Virus record (IMG/VR): IMGVR_UViG_2921473944_000002
Coordinates: 32,001 to 96,000 of that record
Direction: 5' to 3' (one strand)
Length of the DNA: 64,000 bases
DNA from: a virus
Taxonomy: Duplodnaviria; Caudoviricetes
The notes under the pieces are model-generated. The model did no database searches. It had not been told where the DNA came from and was given only the letters and a program-made list of their open reading frames with translations. Positions 52,448-62,993 of the stretch are shown here, in pieces (position 1 is the stretch's first letter; every line of letters begins with the position of its first letter). A program made the translations under genes and the position numbers.

Positions 52448-52777
52448 GGGGCTGTAAAGGTTTCGACAGGGGTATGAAAGTTATGAGTTCGCTTAGAGTG
52501 ATGACTTAATCATCAAACTTTAAATACAAACGCAAACAGACAGATGTTAGCAGTAGCCTAAGTTGCTACACCAAAATACATTGAGATATTGCTGGTAGAT
52601 GTTGAGGTTCAAAAACAAGCATATTCAGTATACGGTTCCCTGTATATGAATACCTGCATTGGTTGAGATAGTTAAGAACAGGGTGGTGGATGAGAAATCA
52701 GTACATGATTCCAAAACAGCGTAAAGATTCATAGTGAGTAGTATTTTTGGACAGGGGTTCGATTCCCCTCAGCTCCA
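52448..52777 (+). ncRNA. ssrA: tmRNA
   Basis: 5' GGGGCTGTAAAGGTTTCGAC, 3' GGGGTTCGATTCCCCTCAGCTCCA; tag ORF (A)ANRQMLAVA* at 52532-52561. Confidence 0.93.
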
Positions 52778-53042: not shown

Positions 53043-53141
53043 TTATAATGCGGTAGCGGAATAGCTGATGGGAGAGTTACAAAAAAATGGATATAACGGC
53101 AGTAGGGATTGCAAAAGAGTAAAAATGAGGAGATTAAGTGA

Positions 53142-53631
53142 TATGAAAACATTAATAAAGTATTTACTAAAAGAGGATACTGTTATTTTCTTCGATGTGG
53201 ATGGTGTACTTGCGCCTTATGAATTTGGAGAAAATAGACACTGTATCGACGATGCGGAATGGGATAGAAAGATGGAAAATGGAGAAGATATGTATTCAAC
53301 AGTTGCTCCTGTTAAGCTATTTCAACAGTTTATCTCTCAAAAGGGTATAGATAATGTATATGTTTGTTCAAAAGCTAATCCGGAAGAATATGAATCCAAA
53401 ATGAAATTTTGTCATGACGGATATGGAATCCCGATGGATCACATTATTATGGTTTCTTCTAAAAATGATAAACTTGCGATATTAAAAGCATTCGCAGAAG
53501 CTAATTCTATTCCAGAAAATAAAATTGCAATGGTAGAAGATACAACGAAGACACTAGATATGATTGCTAAAGGAAGTAAATGCTCTACTATACATGTATC
53601 TTCGTTTCTTGATTACAGTCATGAGGAGTAG
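53142..53631 (+). CDS. HAD superfamily hydrolase
   Basis: FFDVDGVL motif I, MVED motif IV. Confidence 0.7.
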
Positions 53632-53632
53632 T

Positions 53633-54661
53633 ATGGATTTACAACAGATTAAAAGTTTGGTTAAGTCAGATGAATATGTGTTCCTAAAAGACAATGCGCA
53701 CTTGGGAGACAGAATCATCATGCTAGGGCTTGGCGGGAGCTATGCCTATGGAACAAATGTAGAAACTTCGGATCTTGATGTTCGTGGGTGTGCTTTAAAT
53801 AATAAAGAAGAGATTTTAACTAATCAGAATTTTGAACAGTTTGTTGACGAACGCACGGACACCACAATATATGCATTCAATAAATTAGTAAGTTTGCTAT
53901 GTAATTGCAATCCAAATACGGTAGAGATGCTCGGGTTAAAGCCTGAGCATTATTTATATCTATCGTCAATTGGAAAAGAACTACTGGATAATAAACAATT
54001 ATTTCTTTCAAAGAAAGCGGCTCAGGCATTTGGAGGATATGCAACAGCGCAGCTCAGAAGACTTGACAATAAAGCAGCTAGGCTTGTTGGACAGGCTCAA
54101 AAAGAACAGCACGTTTTGAATAGCATCAATAATGTAATGGCTGATTTTAATGAAAGATATACACCATATGCAGATGATGCGATCAAATTATATATTGATA
54201 AATCAGACAAAGAAGATATGGAATCTGAAATTTATATGGATGTAAATCTTACGAGGTATCCTTTACGAGACTATAAATCCATGTGGTCTGAGATGAATAA
54301 TGTAGTTAAGGATTATTCCAAAATCGGCAAAAGAAATCAGCACGCGATTGAGCACAATAAGCTTGGTAAGCATATGATGCATCTGATCAGACTCTATATG
54401 ATGTGCTTGGATATCTTAGAAAACAAAGAAATAGTAACATTCAGAAGTAAAGAGCACAACTTACTGATGTCAATTAGAAATGGCGAATATTTGGATGAAA
54501 ATAGACAGCCAATTCCTGAATTTTTTGAAATGGTTGATGAATATGAGAAGAAAATGAAGTATGCAAAAGAGAATACAGATCTTCCAGAAAAGCCGGATTA
54601 CAAAAGGATACAGGAATTTGTGATGAGTGTTAATGAAAGAATTGTAAGAGGATTAGCATAG
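53633..54661 (+). CDS. Pol-beta-fold nucleotidyltransferase (YcgL/RlaP-like)
   Basis: GGSYAYGTNVETSDLDVRG, NPN..E, KHMMHLIRL. Confidence 0.8.
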   Translation: MDLQQIKSLVKSDEYVFLKDNAHLGDRIIMLGLGGSYAYGTNVETSDLDVRGCALNNKEEILTNQNFEQFVDERTDTTIYAFNKLVSLLCNCNPNTVEMLGLKPEHYLYLSSIGKELLDNKQLFLSKKAAQAFGGYATAQLRRLDNKAARLVGQAQKEQHVLNSINNVMADFNERYTPYADDAIKLYIDKSDKEDMESEIYMDVNLTRYPLRDYKSMWSEMNNVVKDYSKIGKRNQHAIEHNKLGKHMMHLIRLYMMCLDILENKEIVTFRSKEHNLLMSIRNGEYLDENRQPIPEFFEMVDEYEKKMKYAKENTDLPEKPDYKRIQEFVMSVNERIVRGLA

Positions 54662-54672
54662 GAGGTGTAGCT

Positions 54673-55488
54673 TTGGGTGAGATAGTAAGTATCGTAGATG
54701 CAAAAAACAAGGTAATTGATTTACATGCATTACAAAGGAATAAGGTAAAGTCAGCAGCCGGTTTAATAGCTCCTGCGGCAGAAGAAACCCATTGCGAATT
54801 AGCCCCAGAACATGCTGCGGAGCCGATTAAAAGTCTTGACGATATCTATGCAATTTCAGAATTTCTCATTTCTAATAAAAGATACAGAGATAATATGCTG
54901 TTTATCGTAGGGATAAATTTTGGCTTACGAGTGAGCGATTTAAGAATGCTCAGGTTCTCTAATCTAATCAATGATAATTTCACATTTCGTGATAATTTCC
55001 CAGTGTTTGAGAAGAAAACAAGAAATACAAGGAAAAGAAAAAAGAATAGATATATCACAATCAATACCGCCGTTATAGAGGCGGTAACTTTGTATCTGGA
55101 GAATAAGCCAAATGTTACACTAAGTGATTATCTATTCAGGAGCGAATCCAACAGAGGAAAATCATTGAACCAGCCATTATCAAATCAGTCTATTGATAGG
55201 ATTTTAAAAGGAATAGCTGTTGATTTACATCTAAACATTAGGATAGCAACTCATAGTTTGAGAAAAACATTCTGTTATCATCAGATGGTTATGTCAAACA
55301 ACGATAGCAGGAAACTTCTTCTGCTACAGAAGATGCTCAATCATTCATCGCCTGCACAGACGTTAGATTATATAGGAATTACGTCTGAGGAAATTGAAGA
55401 AGCGTATAAGGCATTGAATCTTGGAGGACGTACTAGGAATTATCTGGTTGACAGTAATCTTGTCGAGGCTGAAAGTTCGGCAGGTTAA
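54673..55488 (+). CDS. Tyrosine recombinase (catalytic domain only)
   Basis: GLRVSDL, HSLRKT, LNHSS...TLDYIG. Confidence 0.88.
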   Translation: MGEIVSIVDAKNKVIDLHALQRNKVKSAAGLIAPAAEETHCELAPEHAAEPIKSLDDIYAISEFLISNKRYRDNMLFIVGINFGLRVSDLRMLRFSNLINDNFTFRDNFPVFEKKTRNTRKRKKNRYITINTAVIEAVTLYLENKPNVTLSDYLFRSESNRGKSLNQPLSNQSIDRILKGIAVDLHLNIRIATHSLRKTFCYHQMVMSNNDSRKLLLLQKMLNHSSPAQTLDYIGITSEEIEEAYKALNLGGRTRNYLVDSNLVEAESSAG

Positions 55489-56024: not shown

Positions 56025-56546
56025 ATGAAAAATGTACTTATTGTAGTAGACGTTCAGAATGATTTTGTTGATGGTGCTCTTGGAAGCAAAGAAGCGCAAG
56101 CAATCATTCCAGCTGTGAAAGCAAAGATTGAGAAATATGATAAATACGGTAGAGAGATTCTTTTCACAAGAGACTCACACGATGGGGATTATCTGTACAC
56201 TTCTGAAGGAAGAAAACTGCCTATTAAACACTGCATTATGGGGACTCGCGGACATAGAATTGTAGATGGTCTTGAAACACATAATAGCAGGCATATTGAT
56301 AAGCAGACATTCGGATACACTGGATGGGATGAGGTGTTAGATATGCTTGGAAATCCGGATAGCATTGAGATGATTGGTCTTGATACCGATATTTGTGTTG
56401 TTGCAAATGCATTGATTATTAAAACATTAAGACCAGATATTGAAATCACAGTGGATGCAGGATGCTGTGCAGGATCGACACCAGAAAAGCACAAAGCAGC
56501 ACTAGAAGTAATGAAGAGTTGTCAGATTGATGTGATTGGAGAATAA
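56025..56546 (+). CDS. Nicotinamidase/isochorismatase family cysteine hydrolase
   Basis: VDVQNDF, DSH, HC, K, TDICV. Confidence 0.85.
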   Translation: MKNVLIVVDVQNDFVDGALGSKEAQAIIPAVKAKIEKYDKYGREILFTRDSHDGDYLYTSEGRKLPIKHCIMGTRGHRIVDGLETHNSRHIDKQTFGYTGWDEVLDMLGNPDSIEMIGLDTDICVVANALIIKTLRPDIEITVDAGCCAGSTPEKHKAALEVMKSCQIDVIGE

Positions 56547-56552
56547 AAAGAA

Positions 56553-57380
56553 ATGATTATTTTGGATGGAACAGAAGTAAATGTAGCGCATTTTCCAGAT
56601 GGTACTCAGAGAATTATACTAGAAAATCTTCCAAAGATGGAGTGGAGAAATATACACGAAATTACATGGAAATTTGAAAGAGAGGAAGAACTGTCTACTT
56701 TAATTTATGTTACGAGACATTTGAGAAACATGCCGTGTATACAGGAAATATATCTTAATTTGCTATATCTCCCAAATGCAAGAATGGATCGTATACATCA
56801 TCATGAAGAAGTATTCACGCTTAGAGGGTTCGCCGATGCAATTAACTGGTTGCGATTTGATGTTGTGAGGGTTCTTGATGTTCATAGCAATGTTGGAGCA
56901 GCCTTACTTAATAATGTGTTGGTTTGTACACCGGAGAAGTATTTAAAAGAAGTAATGGAACAGATAGATGAAACCGTACCATTAGTTTTATATTTCCCAG
57001 ATGAAGGAGCAGCAAAACGGTATTCCGATTTATTCCCTGGTATGCGGTATTGCTATGGAGAGAAGAAGAGAGACTGGAAGACGGGTAAAATTCTCGGACT
57101 AGATATTATGACAAACGGCATTGATTTGCAGAAGCAGACCGTATTGATGATAGACGATATCATCGCTTATGGAGGTTCTTTATACTATAGTGCAAAAGAG
57201 TTGAAGCGCAGAGGAGTTGGTACGATTTATGCTTATGCGACACATACAGAAAACTCTATACTCGATGACGAGAAGGGAACTTTGATTAAGTTATTAGAAG
57301 ACAATACAGTGGAGAGGCTGTATACAACAGGAAGTCTTTTTGCAGGGAAACATGACAAAATTACAGTTTTGGAGGTGTAA
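56553..57380 (+). CDS. PRPP-synthetase-like protein (Adps-like)
   Basis: FPDG, ARMDR, DVHS, PDEGA, IDDIIAYGGS. Confidence 0.85.
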   Translation: MIILDGTEVNVAHFPDGTQRIILENLPKMEWRNIHEITWKFEREEELSTLIYVTRHLRNMPCIQEIYLNLLYLPNARMDRIHHHEEVFTLRGFADAINWLRFDVVRVLDVHSNVGAALLNNVLVCTPEKYLKEVMEQIDETVPLVLYFPDEGAAKRYSDLFPGMRYCYGEKKRDWKTGKILGLDIMTNGIDLQKQTVLMIDDIIAYGGSLYYSAKELKRRGVGTIYAYATHTENSILDDEKGTLIKLLEDNTVERLYTTGSLFAGKHDKITVLEV

Positions 57381-57382
57381 TA

Positions 57383-58846
57383 ATGGATAATACAATGGCT
57401 TTATTATTGTCAGACACATATAAACAGTGCCATGACAGGATGTATCCAAAAGGATTGACAAAGCTTGTTTCTTATTGGGTTCCAAGAAGATCCATGCTGA
57501 AAAATCAGGATAAGATGGTTTTCTTTGGGCTGCAGGCATTCATTAAAGAGTATCTGTTAGGTTATTTTCAGACAAACTTCTTTGATGTTAATGAGGAGGA
57601 AGTTGTCAAACAATACACGGATGCAATGAACATTCAAATCGGGTCAGGGAATTACGATGTAGATAAGATCGTGCAATTACATCGTCTCGGATATCTTCCT
57701 TTGGAAATCAGAGCGCTTCCAGAAGGAACACTTGTTACAATGGGAATTCCATGTATCGAAATCACAAACACTACAGAGGAATTTGCGTGGCTCGTGCAGT
57801 GGATTGAATGTATCTTGCAGGTAGAATTGTGGAAACCTTGCTGCCACGCAACAATCGGTTATATGTACAGAAATATTGCGGACTATTGGTATAACAAAAC
57901 AACAGACGGTCTGGATGGAGCAATGGCTTGTGCCGATTTCGGCATGAGAGGAATGTCATGCATGGATGAAGCAATAAGATGTTCGGCTTCGTGGCTGTTA
58001 TCATTTAATAAGACATCTACAATTCCAGCCATTTCATATATTGACAAATATTACAATGCAGATTGTAAACACAACAGAATTGGTATCGGAGCAGTATCAA
58101 CAGAGCATAGCGTTATGGGTGCAAATTTCTCAATCGATGGTGATGAAATTACATTTGTAAAAAGATTGCTTACTGAATTATATCCAGACACATCGTTCAG
58201 TATGGTATCAGATACATATGATTACTGGAATCTAGTGAATAATATCCTGCCTCAGTGCAAAGAAGAGATTATGAACCACAATGGAAAACTCTTAGTTAGA
58301 CCAGACAGCGGAGATATTGTGGAAATCTCAGTTAAAACAGTTGAAAGACTGTGGGAAATTTTCGGAGGAACTGAAAATTCCAAAGGGTACAAGGTATTAG
58401 ACCCTCATATTGGAATTATTTACGGAGATGGATGTACATTATCCAATGTCGAAACTATTTGGGAAGAACTTGAAAAGCGCGGATTTGCTGCGAATAACAT
58501 CGCATATGGAGTTGGGGCATTTTGCTTTACAGCAATCGTAGAAGATGGAAAGCTTGTGGTCGCTACCAGAGATACATTTGGCATTGCAATGAAAGCAACA
58601 TACGGTGTTATTAACGGTAAAAAACTGATGATCTATAAAGACCCGAAGACAGACACAAGCCATTTAAAGAAATCGCATAAAGGTTGTTGCCGAGTATACA
58701 AAGAAGATGGACAGCTGAAGTGCCAGGATCAGCTGACGGAGATGAGCGATGATAGCTTGCTCACAACAGTTTTCAAGGATGGCAAGCTTGCTAAAGAGGA
58801 GTCATTTATGGATATTAGAGAAAGGATGTATGGAGTAAATGATTAA
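57383..58846 (+). CDS. Nampt/NadV-fold phosphoribosyltransferase (Namat-like)
   Basis: DTYKQCH, DFGMRG, TEHSVM, SDTYD, RPDSG, YGDG, KDPKTD. Confidence 0.88.
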   Translation: MDNTMALLLSDTYKQCHDRMYPKGLTKLVSYWVPRRSMLKNQDKMVFFGLQAFIKEYLLGYFQTNFFDVNEEEVVKQYTDAMNIQIGSGNYDVDKIVQLHRLGYLPLEIRALPEGTLVTMGIPCIEITNTTEEFAWLVQWIECILQVELWKPCCHATIGYMYRNIADYWYNKTTDGLDGAMACADFGMRGMSCMDEAIRCSASWLLSFNKTSTIPAISYIDKYYNADCKHNRIGIGAVSTEHSVMGANFSIDGDEITFVKRLLTELYPDTSFSMVSDTYDYWNLVNNILPQCKEEIMNHNGKLLVRPDSGDIVEISVKTVERLWEIFGGTENSKGYKVLDPHIGIIYGDGCTLSNVETIWEELEKRGFAANNIAYGVGAFCFTAIVEDGKLVVATRDTFGIAMKATYGVINGKKLMIYKDPKTDTSHLKKSHKGCCRVYKEDGQLKCQDQLTEMSDDSLLTTVFKDGKLAKEESFMDIRERMYGVND

Positions 58847-59300
58847 AATTATTGATGGTGATTTACTCGCATCCAAAACAGATATTATTGCACACCAGGT
58901 TAATTGCAAAGGTGCTTTTAACTCTGGTGTTGCAAGGGCAATACGGGAATATGATGTTCAGGTTTTCCATGATTATCGTGCGTACTGCTCCGGTAAAACG
59001 GCAGATGATCTTATAGGAGATGTGAGATATTTCCAATCAGATATGGATGACAAAATATACGCAAACCTATTTGCTCAGAAATCTTATGGATATGATGGCA
59101 AACAATATACAGATTTGGAAGCGTTGAAAAAGTGCTTTGAAAATCTGCGGGATTATGCAATGGAGAGAAATATGAGTATTGCAATGCCTTATAAGATTGG
59201 AAGCGTTAGAGGAGGCGCAAACTGGGAAGATGTTTATGCTTTAATTGAAACTACATTTCGAGAAGTAAATGTAGAATTATGGAGGCTTGATAAAGGATGA
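58839..59300 (+). CDS. Macro domain protein
   Basis: GDLL, HQVNC.G...GVA, PYKIG..RGG..W. Confidence 0.85.
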   Translation: MIKIIDGDLLASKTDIIAHQVNCKGAFNSGVARAIREYDVQVFHDYRAYCSGKTADDLIGDVRYFQSDMDDKIYANLFAQKSYGYDGKQYTDLEALKKCFENLRDYAMERNMSIAMPYKIGSVRGGANWEDVYALIETTFREVNVELWRLDKG

Positions 59301-59713
59301 TAAGTGCGTTTAGAGGAAAATATTATTTTTTAAGCAATTTTTATGCAGCTCCTGTGGTGTGGGACGGTGTTTCTTATAAGAATAATGAAGCTGCGTTTCA
59401 ATCTGCTAAAGTAGGAAGAGAGTACAGGCAGGAATTTGCAGAGTTAACCGCTTCAGAAGCTAAGAAATTAGGTAGGAAGGTTCCGCTTAGACCAGACTGG
59501 GAGAACGTTAAGGAAAGAATTATGTATGAGATTTGCCTTGCTAAATTCTCCCAGAATGAAGAACTCAAAGAAAAATTACTTTTAACAGGAGAATGTGCCT
59601 TAGAAGAAGGTAATACATGGGGTGACAAAGTATGGGGAACGGTGAATGGTGAAGGAGAAAATAAACTTGGAAAGATTCTGATGAAAATACGGGAGGAACT
59701 AAGACATGAGTAA
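59297..59713 (+). CDS. NADAR family protein
   Basis: FLSNFY, EAAFQSAK, KFSQN, WG...GENKLGKILM. Confidence 0.9.
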   Translation: MISAFRGKYYFLSNFYAAPVVWDGVSYKNNEAAFQSAKVGREYRQEFAELTASEAKKLGRKVPLRPDWENVKERIMYEICLAKFSQNEELKEKLLLTGECALEEGNTWGDKVWGTVNGEGENKLGKILMKIREELRHE

Positions 59714-60719
59714 ATTTAATGCAAAGGCAGTAAAAGATGACATCGTAAAATGGATTAGAGAATTCTTTGAGCAGAATGGTAAAGGATGTAGTGCTGTAGT
59801 CGGGATTTCCGGAGGAAAGGATTCCAGTGTGGTTGCAGCTTTGTGCGTAGAAGCTCTTGGCAAAGATAAGGTTTTCGGAGTGCTTATGCCGAATGGGGAG
59901 CAAGTTGATATTGACACATCGTATTCTCTAGTAAAGCATCTCGGGATTGACTATTGTGTGGTTAATATTCATGAAGCAATTAGATCACTGAAGCATGAGA
60001 TCAAACCGCAGCTCGGAGATCATTGGTCTGTACAGACTTCTGTAAATCTTCCGGCAAGAATTAGAATGGCTACATTGTATGCAGTATCTCAAACAATCGG
60101 TGGGAGAGTCGCCAATACCTGCAATTTATCAGAAGATTGGGTTGGATATGCTACGAGATATGGAGACGGAGCCGGGGACTTTAGTCCGTTATCAAAGCTC
60201 ACTGTAACTGAAGTTAAAGCAATCGGACGTGAGCTTGGTCTTCCAGAAGAATTAGTTGAAAAGGTTCCTACAGATGGTCTGTGTGGTCATACGGACGAAG
60301 ATAACCTTGGATTTACATATGCAGTTCTGGACAGATACATTAGAACCAGTGAAATCGATGATATGCATACAAAAGAAAGAATTGATACCATGCATAAAAA
60401 GAATTTGTTCAAGTTGGCTCTTATGCCGTCGTTTGAATACACAAATCCTGTAGAAACAGTAGTGTTAGATGGTAAGCAGACTGGATATGGTATCGTAAGT
60501 GAGTATATTAAAAAATACTGGGAACATCACTGCACTGAAGACGTGATTGTATCAATCGAAATATCCAGAGACGGGAAGAATTACGAACGTCTTAATGAAG
60601 TCGCAAGCCCATACGATATGTATGATGTAGAATATTTAAACGATTGGTGGGAAGGCGAGAAATATATCAGGGTAACAGATATACAAGGCATATCCGATAT
60701 AAAAATCAAGAAATTATAG
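59706..60719 (+). CDS. nadE: NH3-dependent NAD+ synthetase with ~90-aa C-terminal extension
   Basis: GISGGKDS, NLPARIRM, GYATRYGDG, KVPTDGL, TDEDNLG. Confidence 0.88.
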   Translation: MSKFNAKAVKDDIVKWIREFFEQNGKGCSAVVGISGGKDSSVVAALCVEALGKDKVFGVLMPNGEQVDIDTSYSLVKHLGIDYCVVNIHEAIRSLKHEIKPQLGDHWSVQTSVNLPARIRMATLYAVSQTIGGRVANTCNLSEDWVGYATRYGDGAGDFSPLSKLTVTEVKAIGRELGLPEELVEKVPTDGLCGHTDEDNLGFTYAVLDRYIRTSEIDDMHTKERIDTMHKKNLFKLALMPSFEYTNPVETVVLDGKQTGYGIVSEYIKKYWEHHCTEDVIVSIEISRDGKNYERLNEVASPYDMYDVEYLNDWWEGEKYIRVTDIQGISDIKIKKL

Positions 60720-61312: not shown

Positions 61313-61783
61313 GTGATACATATGAAATGTAAGCAATGTGAAGGAAAAGGAATGATTGGTCTTGGAGTAGGAATCAGAGGGGTAACAAAATGTCCAGTAT
61401 GTAATGGCAAAGGCGAGGTTCCGGATAATTCTACTACAAAGGTAGCTGTTATATTCGATAGATGGTTCATCGCGCCAGACGAATTAAATGAATTCTGTCA
61501 AAGTATCGGGTACGAAAACCCGGATTACCCAAACGACTTTGATTTAATGTTTGACCCAAGAGTTGTTCAATTTTGTCAGCAGAATTTGACTAGATTATGG
61601 GGAGAACATGTATACAGAGGACGAGAAAGCTGCGATTTCAGATGTGGTTTTGCAGGAGCTGGCTATATCAGACAAATAGATACATCTAAGACATGGAGAT
61701 TGTCTTACAATCATGTGGACGCTCCGGTGATTGACTATGTGCAGGTTAGCACGAATAAATACGGATACCTTTCCGTATTATAA
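61313..61783 (+). CDS. Hypothetical protein with N-terminal CxxCxGxG Zn finger
   Basis: CKQCEGKG...CPVCNGKG. Confidence 0.6.
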   Translation: MIHMKCKQCEGKGMIGLGVGIRGVTKCPVCNGKGEVPDNSTTKVAVIFDRWFIAPDELNEFCQSIGYENPDYPNDFDLMFDPRVVQFCQQNLTRLWGEHVYRGRESCDFRCGFAGAGYIRQIDTSKTWRLSYNHVDAPVIDYVQVSTNKYGYLSVL

Positions 61784-61793
61784 GGAGGAATTT

Positions 61794-62993
61794 ATGATTT
61801 ACTTAGATAACTCAGCAACAACTCCGATTCACCCGGATGTGCTCAATGCTATGATGCCATACTTAAAGGGTGGATATGGGAATGCGGGGGCTGTTTATAG
61901 GATTGGACGAGAATCTGCAAAAGCTATTCAGAAAGCAAGAGAGCAGGTTGCTCAGTTATTTAATGCTTCCGCCGATCAGATTGTATTTACATCTGGAGGA
62001 AGCGAAGGAAACAATATGGTGTTCTCATACGGCATGAGATGTATGCTTGAAGAGCTGGGAAAGAAACATGTTGTGATTTCTCAGATTGAACATGATTCAG
62101 TGTATGAAGCAGCGACGCACATGTTCAAACAATCTGGGAATGTGAATATAAAAGACGACTTTTATACACAGTTTATACATACAAAAAGAGACGGGACGGT
62201 CGATGTAGAGCATTTAGAGTCATTATTAGACGAAGATGCCAACATCGGTCTCGTATCGGTAATGTATGTAAATAATGAAACAGGAGCTGTAAATCCTATA
62301 AATCGCATAGGCGAAATGTGTAAGGAAAGAGGAATATTGTTTCATACAGATTGTGTACAGGCAGCAGGATGCCACGTAATTGATGTTAATACGATTGGTT
62401 GCGATTATGCAACCATATCCGGTCATAAGATTTATGCTCCTAAAGGAATTGGCGCTATATATATAAGAGACAGTAAACTTGCTCGATCACTTGTATACGG
62501 TGGTGCTAATCAGGAATTCGGGTTCCGTGGAGGTACTGAGAATGTTGCAAGTATCGTAGGTCTTGGCAAGTCATGTGATATGATTTGTTCAGATTTCGGC
62601 GCGCAGAGAGTGGCGGTGTCTTTATTAAAGCGGCTATTTTATGAAAATATAGTCTCCGGTCTGAAGTCCAGTGGCTTAGACGAGAGAGTCCATGTTAATG
62701 GTGCGGCAGCAGGCGATGTTGGGAAGACATTGAATTTAAGAATCGAGAATATTGATAGCGAGACTTTGGTTCTAATGTTAGATGCGAAAGGAGTATGCAT
62801 ATCTGCCGGGTCTGCGTGTCATAGTCATGAGTCACAGCCTAGCAGAGTTTTAACATCTATGGGGCTTTCGGACGATGAAGCGAGAGACTCTGTTAGAATT
62901 TCGTTTTCATCTGCAAATACACCGGAAGAAGTCGAGGAAGCTGCTGCAATATTTTCTTCATGTGTCAAAGCATTAGCCGGATTGCAGAGGTAA
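61794..62993 (+). CDS. IscS/NifS-type cysteine desulfurase
   Basis: YLDNSATT, FTSGGSE, NNETG, SGHK, SAGSAC. Confidence 0.9.
   Translation: MIYLDNSATTPIHPDVLNAMMPYLKGGYGNAGAVYRIGRESAKAIQKAREQVAQLFNASADQIVFTSGGSEGNNMVFSYGMRCMLEELGKKHVVISQIEHDSVYEAATHMFKQSGNVNIKDDFYTQFIHTKRDGTVDVEHLESLLDEDANIGLVSVMYVNNETGAVNPINRIGEMCKERGILFHTDCVQAAGCHVIDVNTIGCDYATISGHKIYAPKGIGAIYIRDSKLARSLVYGGANQEFGFRGGTENVASIVGLGKSCDMICSDFGAQRVAVSLLKRLFYENIVSGLKSSGLDERVHVNGAAAGDVGKTLNLRIENIDSETLVLMLDAKGVCISAGSACHSHESQPSRVLTSMGLSDDEARDSVRISFSSANTPEEVEEAAAIFSSCVKALAGLQR

Follow-up and report, generated by a model that had tools for sequence, protein, structure and literature searches.

How might a phage use a nicotinamidase and an NAD+ synthetase encoded alongside what looks like the two-enzyme core of an NAD+ reconstitution pathway? 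In phages SPbetaL1, Bas63 and ICP1, the two enzymes Adps and Namat of the NARP1 pathway use ATP to rebuild NAD+ from ADP-ribose and nicotinamide (bioRxiv 10.1101/2024.02.11.579819; PMC12774641; PMC13586617). The window analyzed here, a 64,000-nucleotide stretch of the 117,339-base record of a gut phage, holds six + strand genes packed at 56025-60719, with intergenic gaps of at most 6 bases and overlaps of 4-8 bases:

56025..56546, + strand: PncA-like nicotinamidase, isochorismatase fold (173 aa; PF00857, 3.5e-26)
56553..57380, + strand: predicted Adps-like ADP-ribose pyrophosphokinase, PRPS fold (275 aa; phrog_619, 1.8e-55)
57383..58846, + strand: Namat-like, Nampt-fold transferase with remodelled base pocket; proposed nicotinate ADP-ribose transferase (487 aa)
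58839..59300, + strand: macro domain protein of the Poa1p-like family, probably Adpp, an ADPR-1''-phosphate phosphatase (phrog_335 'phosphatase', 1.1e-34)
59297..59713, + strand: NADAR domain protein, possibly an ADP-ribosyl-guanine glycohydrolase (138 aa; PF08719, 1.9e-27)
59706..60719, + strand: NH3-dependent NAD+ synthetase NadE with a C-terminal extension (337 aa; TIGR00552, PF02540)

The open reading frames coincide with those of the initial annotation, and family matches bear out all six of its assignments in order (nicotinamidase, PRPS-like, Nampt-fold, macro, NADAR, NadE). Its remark that the window contains no NadD/NMNAT extends to the entire record: the PF01467 profile for the NMNAT/NadD fold had no matches in 117,339 bases, while all 14 control genomes were positive. 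NARP2 is ruled out by the lack of an NMNAT-fold gene in the 117-kb record, and NARP3 is unlikely on the same ground, an adenylyltransferase fold of the NMNAT/NadR type being absent there. Hundreds of loci show this gene set again, placing the operon far beyond chance. Megablast of the 4.7-kb operon region against the phage collection returned no match, and all relatives of its genes were reached at the protein level. A scan of the operon for promoters and terminators found nothing exceeding shuffled expectation, and a host search among 401 genomes of the order Lachnospirales yielded relatives only about 50% identical.

A Namat-like transferase with an altered base pocket

The transferase matches the NAPRTase and NAMPT_N profiles, phrog_448 (1.4e-163) and NF006629 (465 bits; cut-off 405), and its best PDB matches are SPbetaL1 Namat structures 9w5w/9w5x (6e-115). 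Residues 207-216, SFNKTSTIPA, align gaplessly with SFTGTDTIPA of SPbetaL1 Namat and with NFKGTDTVAG of mammalian NAMPT (PDB 2h3b). The Asp-to-Ser replacement proposed from the sequence thus falls where expected, Ser212 corresponding to Asp215 of SPbetaL1 Namat and Asp219 of NAMPT. Among the base-pocket ligand contacts of SPbetaL1 Namat, the only changes in the window enzyme are D215 to S212, A242 to S239 and G213 to K210. The core is kept (D11, Y13, F186, R189, R306, D308, H242, R396 and D397); the Namat core residues Asp13, Tyr15, Phe189, Arg192, Arg306, Asp308 and the catalytic His are all shared by the window protein and recur in 64-66 of 66 clade representatives. In those 66 sequences, the Asp215-equivalent residue is Ala (47), Ser (18, as in the window) or Val (1) and never Asp. 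The three pocket residues covary. Judged from these alignments, the pocket change in the window transferase is real and targeted.

The altered position is the one that reads the base in characterized enzymes. Asp215 of SPbetaL1 Namat hydrogen-bonds the nicotinamide amide, and D215A lowers NAD+ synthesis 8-fold (PMC12774641); in NAMPT, specificity is defined by Asp219 (PMC7096376). According to secondary accounts of Khan et al. 2006, D219A abolishes the activity of human NAMPT (tabulated in PMC4919578) and D219S switches its substrate affinity, reportedly towards nicotinic acid (PMC4919578, PMC7096376).

We also compared the adenine selectivity clamp, whose signature consists of a GSxFxFxFTRD-type motif (GS-X-phi-X-phi-X-phi-TRD, with an aromatic X) plus Arg40. 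Relative to SPbetaL1 Namat, the window enzyme has M38 for R40 and A379 for S391, and 9 inserted residues in its clamp helix take the place of the Tyr396 region; its clamp reads GAFCFT, the 9-residue insertion, then ATRD, with the aromatic at position 3 and the TRD retained. Basal clade members carry the full Namat clamp signature, with Arg or Lys at position 40. Because its clamp has diverged, use of ADPR-PP is less certain in the window enzyme than in these basal members.

Partner enzymes and accessory genes

The Adps-like gene adjoins the transferase gene with a 2-base gap. Its product has a PRPS fold that lacks the C-terminal regulatory helices, is of Adps-like length and shares 32% identity with the validated Adps of SPbetaL1. 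It falls below all PRPS NCBIfam cut-offs (60-63 bits versus 113-296): the best PRPS-model score is 62.9 bits (cut-off 296) and TIGR01251 gives 60 (cut-off 113). By the ribose-phosphate diphosphokinase cut-offs the protein does not class as a canonical PRPP synthetase. The roles of ICP1 Adps residues, including catalytic Lys185 and the Asp212/Asp213 pair, have been described (PMC13586617); mapped from the ICP1 genome record, all seven (F18, R87, H121, D161, K185, D212 and D213) are conserved in the window protein. These residues are common to true PRPS and, as sequence features, do not prove an ADP-ribose acceptor.

The nearest solved relative of the PncA-like protein is the Pyrococcus horikoshii pyrazinamidase/nicotinamidase 1ILW/1IM5 (1.2e-14), and alignment to 1ILW finds Asp9, Lys93, Cys124, Asp50, His52 and His69 in place. 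The first three are the catalytic triad and the last three the metal ligands. Against the NCBIfam equivalog NF008623 the protein scores 31 bits (cut-off 174). By these comparisons it has the nicotinamidase fold and active site and lies outside the E. coli-type equivalog. The downstream NadE scores 183 bits with TIGR00552 (cut-off 63.65) and 185 bits with PF02540 (1.6e-54; cut-off 21) over residues 12-237; its C-terminal extension is about 87 residues long, and in most relatives the match stops near residue 250.

Homologues of the macro protein occur in 744 phage records, many annotated as Poa1p-like or Appr-1''-p processing, and in 24 Asp-type loci the macro gene found between Adps and Namat is its homologue (HMM E-values 1e-27 to 1e-49). 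In NARP1-AP, a Poa1p-like macro protein, Adpp, has been demonstrated to act as an ADPR-1''-phosphate phosphatase (bioRxiv 10.64898/2026.01.28.702374). Since the same Poa1p-like family is found inside Asp-type NARP1 operons, the macro domain, which the initial annotation had cast as a reverser of DarT-type ADP-ribosylation, is more probably an Adpp-like phosphatase. The same role, assigned to the NADAR protein as well, agrees with published phage NADARs. This protein matches PF08719 at 97 bits (cut-off 35.1), with a weak match to Phage_30_3, and its Glu31-x6-Lys38 spacing equals that of the catalytic E36/K43 pair of AdfN, the phage T4 NADAR (PMC11257639). It may reverse DarT1 modification. Both genes are variable accessories: the macro gene is present at 134/222 fully flanked non-Asp loci, and NADAR at 28/76 Ser-type, 2/146 Ala-type and 8/90 Asp-type loci.

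Co-inheritance with PncA and NadE

We examined neighbours within 8.5 kb at 400 Namat-homologue loci, 149 with an Asp/Glu-type and 251 with an Ala/Ser-type transferase. PncA and NadE are both present at 234 of the 251 Ala/Ser-type loci, whereas neither gene is found near any of the 149 Asp/Glu-type transferases. The pattern is similar for loci with both flanks of at least 4 kb (216/222 non-Asp versus 0/104 Asp/Glu) and for clusters at 70% identity (18/19 versus 0/58). Fourteen Asp/Glu-type loci drawn from the IMG data set, the source of most non-Asp loci, are likewise without PncA and NadE. The linkage holds whether PncA comes first or last in the gene order and is still seen in Phass-1, at 33% identity. 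Moreover, the Adps partner is kept, with its catalytic residues intact, at 221/222 fully flanked non-Asp loci.

We rechecked five fully flanked exceptions: one is a 393-kb phage with both genes farther off, three are fragments, and one is a complete 355-kb phage that has the non-Asp enzyme and PncA without NadE. PncA alone or NadE alone was also found in gut-phage fragments without a nearby Namat. The non-Asp transferases form one deep clade and the tree needs a single change; the association is thus one evolutionary event long retained, not many independent ones. A scan seeded with basal clade members returned relatives of at most 43% identity, mostly Asp/Glu-type, and genomic context for the basal branches comes from Phass-1 only.

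The non-Asp clade extends to genomes of gut Clostridia, where the regulator NrtR follows the module in 61 of 80 loci; NrtR is released from DNA best by ADP-ribose (PMC2330246). NadD was found in all bacterial carriers checked. A canonical PncB is present in four of five bacterial carriers, so the transferase is not simply their only NAPRT; P. massiliensis is without a detectable PncB.

A candidate nicotinate-based route to NAD+

We infer every enzymatic step that follows, the third above all, from the genes present, the residues changed and how strictly these are inherited together. The loss of nicotinamide-reading residues in a transferase accompanied by a nicotinamidase and an NAD synthetase suggests that NAD+ is probably rebuilt via nicotinic acid. 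Likewise, ADP-ribose is the likely input, given the near-universal Adps partner, the macro gene in 134/222 operons, the clamp signature of basal members and the NrtR linkage. We put the probability of a deamidated (nicotinate-type) NARP1 variant at roughly 0.6. In such a pathway, a host defence NADase would split NAD+ into ADP-ribose and nicotinamide; PncA would convert nicotinamide to nicotinate (step 1), and the Adps-like enzyme would make ADPR-PP from ADP-ribose and ATP (step 2). The Namat-like transferase, its amide-reading Asp now Ser and the neighbouring Ala and Gly now Ser and Lys, would then join nicotinate and ADPR-PP into deamido-NAD (NaAD) with no need for NaMN or NadD (step 3), and NadE would produce NAD+ from NaAD, ATP and ammonia (step 4). 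The Adpp-like macro protein could feed the pathway by converting ADPR-1''-phosphate, the product of RES-type NADases, to ADP-ribose, and NADAR may free ADP-ribose from DarT1-modified DNA. A nicotinate route would burden the phage with an extra cost in ATP and ammonia. Overall, the initial proposal of a NARP variant running through nicotinate and deamido-NAD gains strong comparative support from the pocket-PncA/NadE linkage, the covarying residues, Adps and NrtR; its macro component calls for correction.

Three other readings of these genes need to be weighed. The operon could encode a PRPP-based Preiss-Handler shortcut in which the Adps-like protein is a dedicated PRPP synthetase and the transferase makes NaMN, to be adenylated by host NadD and finished by phage NadE; it would parallel NARP2 in deamidated form, with one step left to the host. 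SPbetaL1 Namat does convert PRPP at about half the rate of human NAMPT (PMC12774641), what the Adps-like protein conserves are PRPS residues too, and the diverged clamp of the window enzyme, the NadD of every bacterial carrier checked and the undetected PncB of P. massiliensis would all suit such a route. However, it sits poorly with an Adps-like protein that fails the PRPS cut-offs while having the length of, and 32% identity to, a validated Adps; it gives no role to the Adpp-type macro gene of 134/222 operons; and the full clamp signature of basal clade members, the PncB already present in 4/5 bacterial carriers and the link to an ADP-ribose-responsive regulator speak against it as well. We regard it as unlikely. 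Less probable still is an ordinary or relaxed NARP1, whose transferase still takes nicotinamide (perhaps both bases) while PncA and NadE ride along as passengers that boost host nicotinate salvage. An intact catalytic core, the ability of serine to hydrogen-bond an amide and the lone PncA and NadE genes of other gut-phage fragments are compatible with this, but most of the clade (47/66) has Ala rather than Ser, and D215A/D219A enzymes are strongly impaired with nicotinamide. Furthermore, a phage PncA would destroy the transferase's own substrate, and independent passengers are hard to square with 0/149 Asp-type Namat loci having PncA or NadE.

Finally, the base taken by the pocket might be neither nicotinamide nor nicotinate but a different pyridine or an analogue; or else the isochorismatase-fold protein might hydrolyze another amide. 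Either would yield an NAD analogue or decoy. This fold has many substrates, and the PncA-like protein lies far below the nicotinamidase equivalog cut-off (31 versus 174 bits). Against this, it has the nicotinamidase triad and metal ligands, the co-inherited NadE has NaAD as its known substrate, and the NAD regulator NrtR stands beside the bacterial operons; we consider the idea very improbable.

For the nicotinate-type pathway, a broader proposal would be that a Nampt-fold nicotinate ADP-ribose transferase, with its Adps partner, PncA and NadE, forms a four-enzyme recycling route to NAD+ that is chromosomal and NrtR/ADP-ribose-controlled in gut Clostridia, and that many gut phages took it up to counter immune systems that deplete NAD+, adding Adpp and NADAR to it. 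On these comparative data we see the odds for this scenario as about even. We found no publication on the conversion of nicotinate and ADPR-PP to NaAD or on a PncA/Adps/Namat/NadE module. If the proposal is right, the reaction would be a new one, the route a fourth way of NAD+ salvage, and NARP1 would have a second biochemical form, widespread among phages and Clostridia of the gut. The proposal would then account for 'prs-nadV-like' genes found beside pncA and nadE and next to NrtR, the ADP-ribose sensor, and anti-defence annotation tools would have to separate the two NARP1 forms by the three pocket residues.

Comparison with known systems

The operon resembles NARP1 in its phage context, its adjoining genes for a PRPS-fold Adps-like protein and a Nampt-fold transferase, and the conserved catalytic core of the latter. 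It differs in the transferase itself (Ser for the nicotinamide-binding Asp, Ala242 to Ser, Gly213 to Lys, Arg40 to Met and the 9-residue clamp-helix insertion) and in PncA and NadE, near-constant partners of the non-Asp transferase that accompany Asp/Glu-type Namat at 0/149 loci. With NARP1-AP of Vibrio phage Gary (Adps - Adpp macro phosphatase - Namat; bioRxiv 10.64898/2026.01.28.702374) it shares a Poa1p-like macro gene, one with homologues in Asp-type operons; here, however, that gene lies 3' of the transferase and is joined with a nicotinate-type core. Other phage-encoded systems of NAD+ restoration, NARP2 (NadV and NMNAT) and NARP3 (PnuC and NadR; PMC13464706), use PRPP or nicotinamide riboside, in contrast to the ADP-ribose-type chemistry proposed for this module, whose record is without an NMNAT/NadR-type fold.

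Among non-phage systems, the human NAMPT D219S mutant, as reported from Khan et al. 2006 in PMC4919578 and PMC7096376, has the same substitution at the same position. That enzyme is a PRPP-using laboratory point mutant, whereas the non-Asp change is natural, clade-wide and accompanied by two further pocket changes. The layout, with PncA first and NadE last, recalls the Preiss-Handler salvage I operons (pncA-pncB-nadD-nadE), such as the NrtR-controlled one of Clostridium acetobutylicum (PMC2330246), and the bacterial versions of the module are NrtR-linked too. Unlike in those operons, an Adps-like and Namat-like pair takes the place of PncB and NadD and, if our proposal is right, would make NaAD from ADP-ribose without passing through NaMN.

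The NAD+ operon and its genes

An NAD+ reconstitution operon had been proposed at 56025-60719, and ORF calls and profile searches bore out its six genes, with their families and order. The ORFs are consecutive on the + strand, each lying no more than 6 bases from the next or overlapping it by 4-8, a layout typical for a single translationally coupled operon:

First ORF, + strand: PncA-like nicotinamidase, isochorismatase fold (best solved relative P. horikoshii nicotinamidase 1ILW, 1.2e-14)
Second ORF, + strand: Adps-like PRPS-fold protein, 275 aa (phrog_619)
Third ORF, + strand: Nampt-fold transferase, 487 aa (best solved relatives SPbetaL1 Namat 9w5w/9w5x, 6e-115)
Fourth ORF, + strand: macro domain (phrog_335)
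Fifth ORF, + strand: NADAR (profile search)
Sixth ORF, + strand: NH3-type NadE (183 bits; cut-off 63.65)

Sequence comparison shows both the Asp-Lys-Cys triad and Asp/His/His metal ligands in the PncA-like protein. The Adps-like protein is 32% identical to validated SPbetaL1 Adps and reached no PRPP-synthetase cut-off in the profile search. The transferase matches mammalian NAMPT much more weakly (about 1e-58) than it does SPbetaL1 Namat. The reported absence of NadD/NMNAT extends to the full IMG/VR virus record (117,339 bases, rated about 99% complete), of which the window covers bases 32001-96000 and in which no gene of this fold was found. The sequence observations of the initial annotation (ORFs, families, residue change and NMNAT absence) are correct in every particular.

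The last 87 or so residues of NadE (60456-60719) form a C-terminal extension with only a weak DUF6120 match; in most relatives the NadE match stops near residue 250. ARAGORN calls a tmRNA gene (52448-52777, tag peptide ANRQMLAVA) about 3 kb upstream of the operon. Immediately upstream (53068-55488) lie genes for a HAD-like hydrolase (weak match), an RlaP-type nucleotidyltransferase and a tyrosine recombinase (Phage_integrase), and a class-V aminotransferase/cysteine desulfurase-like gene lies downstream (61731-62993).

Residue changes at the base pocket

Transferase residues 207-216 (SFNKTSTIPA) pair without gaps with SFTGTDTIPA in SPbetaL1 Namat and NFKGTDTVAG in mammalian NAMPT, so that Ser212 stands in place of Namat Asp215 and NAMPT Asp219, as had been read from the sequence. 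Asp215 hydrogen-bonds nicotinamide in Namat crystal structures, and the D215A mutation lowers NAD+ formation 8-fold (PMC12774641). Asp219 defines the substrate specificity of human NAMPT (PMC7096376); a table in PMC4919578, which credits Khan 2006, gives D219S as a switch of substrate affinity and D219A as devoid of activity.

The replacement of Asp215 is not isolated. We mapped published ligand contacts (SPbetaL1 numbering) onto 228 homologues sharing at most 80% identity, 66 of them non-Asp (Ala or Ser, in one homologue Val, at the Asp215 column) and 162 Asp/Glu-type. The nicotinamide contact Ala242 is Ser in 63/66 non-Asp sequences and Ala in 160/162 Asp/Glu-type ones; Gly213 is Asn or Lys in 54/66 and Gly in 160/162, respectively. 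Since mutations at the equivalent positions of human NAMPT, Gly217 and Ala244, block inhibitor binding (PMC4919578), both positions presumably line the pocket. Both groups keep Asp13, Tyr15, Phe189, Arg192, Arg306, Asp308, the catalytic His, Arg399 and Asp400 essentially unchanged. The non-Asp transferase resembles a functional enzyme in which the base pocket was remodelled rather than one that is decaying.

The Glu subgroup (23 loci, e.g. L140, L146, L150, L160 and L162) has the motif GSETIP and a clamp ending KSRDS, and its Namat homologues are linked to Adps, never to PncA or NadE. Many Namat/Nampt representatives (P0002-P0150) reach 550-1100 aa and align in two to four separate segments, with breaks near query residues 230-260 or 310-320, and several Bacillus phage genes likewise match in two pieces; the split matches in the long representatives suggest that large insertions, inteins or homing elements, have entered at recurring positions.

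Pocket residue and gene content

We scored the Asp215-column residue at 400 loci with a Namat homologue, taken from IMG/VR and a phage collection, and searched their flanks with profiles from the six window proteins. No PncA or NadE was found within 8.5 kb at the Asp-type (126) or Glu-type (23) loci, nearly all of which had Adps, whereas both genes were present at 234 of the 251 Ala-type (163) and Ser-type (88) loci. With at least 4 kb on each side, both occurred at 216/222 non-Asp versus 0/104 Asp/Glu loci, and in 18/19 versus 0/58 after collapse to 70%-identity clusters. Habitat is no explanation for this linkage: 14 Asp/Glu-type loci drawn from the IMG data set behind most of the non-Asp loci lack both genes as well. 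Across the whole phage collection a Namat/Nampt homologue occurs in 2045 records, NadE in only 52 and window-type PncA in 7. Among five rechecked exceptions (of six fully flanked non-Asp loci without both genes), one 393-kb phage has PncA and NadE farther away, three are fragments, and one complete 355-kb phage has PncA and lacks NadE. Other human-gut phage fragments (L084-L092) have a PncA or a NadE homologue alone, in stretches (up to 8 kb per side, less at record ends) that do not include Namat or Adps.

In a FastTree phylogeny of the 228 sequences, built with trait columns removed, all 66 non-Asp sequences lie on one side of a single branch (SH-like support 99), and the Asp215-column trait needs one change of state. 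The association of pocket with PncA and NadE thus goes back to a single ancient event rather than to repeated convergence, and the large locus counts are not to be read as independent trials; what carries weight is retention. Within the non-Asp clade identity falls as low as 33%, and the same four genes occur in Phass-1, a recoded gut phage on a basal branch; Ser and Ala have swapped repeatedly, and PncA stands first or last in the operon. Close relatives (L003-L082) are about 87% identical to the window in the transferase, but only 53-64% in PncA and Adps and 59-80% in NadE. The operon is a mosaic whose partners have been exchanged for distant alleles, always of the same kind of gene.

A bacterial genome scan returned 80 loci (L411-L490), nearly all from gut Clostridia such as Lachnospiraceae and Ruminococcus, and including the isolate Pseudoruminococcus massiliensis. 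In every transferase Asp215 is replaced by Ala and Ala242 by Ser, in 79/80 Gly213 is replaced by Asn, and PncA and NadE adjoin Adps and the transferase at 44 of the 46 fully flanked loci. A same-strand gene for NrtR (Nudix plus winged-helix), which ADP-ribose releases from DNA most effectively (PMC2330246), follows the module at 61/80 bacterial loci (e.g. L442:6632-12324) and was found at none of 409 viral loci. In P. massiliensis the module lies in chromosomal rather than phage-like surroundings: none of the neighbours (AgrB, Tim44-like proteins, aspartate-semialdehyde dehydrogenase) is a phage gene, and the NadE there is the 648-aa glutamine-dependent form. Canonical PncB was present in four of five bacterial carriers checked and NadD in all five.

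ADP-ribose or PRPP as input

Comparative genomics supports well, at a probability we put near 0.6, a NARP1 variant in which PncA would yield nicotinate, Adps would convert ADP-ribose to ADPR-PP, the transferase would form deamido-NAD (NaAD) and NadE would complete NAD+. ADP-ribose as the input is favoured by four observations, namely the retained Adps, the embedded macro gene, the basal adenine clamp and the bacterial loci with NrtR. Adps is kept at 221 of the 222 fully flanked non-Asp loci, and its residues implicated by ICP1 structures are all conserved (residue roles: PMC13586617). These are also PRPS residues, however, and the clamp of the window transferase has diverged (Arg40 to Met, Ser391 to Ala, and a 9-residue insertion replacing the Tyr396 region); together with P. 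massiliensis, where no PncB was detected, they keep live a PRPP/NaMN route completed by host NadD, which we consider unlikely. Basal members of the non-Asp clade retain the exact Namat clamp signature alongside the non-Asp pocket. Of the non-Asp operons, 134/222 include a Poa1p-like macro gene, homologous to the ones that Asp-type operons have between Adps and Namat; this is the arrangement of NARP1-AP, in which the macro protein has been shown to turn ADPR-1''-phosphate into ADP-ribose (bioRxiv 10.64898/2026.01.28.702374).

Macro and NADAR genes are variable across the collected loci. Both had been proposed to reverse DarT-type ADP-ribosylation, which is reasonable for NADAR: its catalytic Glu-x6-Lys pair is present, it weakly matches T4 gp30.3, and phage NADARs of that kind strip DarT1 ADP-ribose off DNA (PMC11257639). 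ADP-ribose freed in this way could feed into the nicotinate-type pathway. The macro protein is instead best read as a phosphatase like Adpp (ADPR-1''-phosphate phosphatase) that would supply ADP-ribose following RES-type NAD+ cleavage.

Full-text literature searches found no work linking NARP1 with nicotinamidase, NadE, NaAD or a deamidated route, and no NARP pathway beyond the published set of NARP1, NARP1-AP, NARP2, NARP3 and RyDEP. The window module shares its pathway logic with NARP1, but differs in its proposed base, in two extra obligatory enzymes and in the new transferase reaction that it implies.
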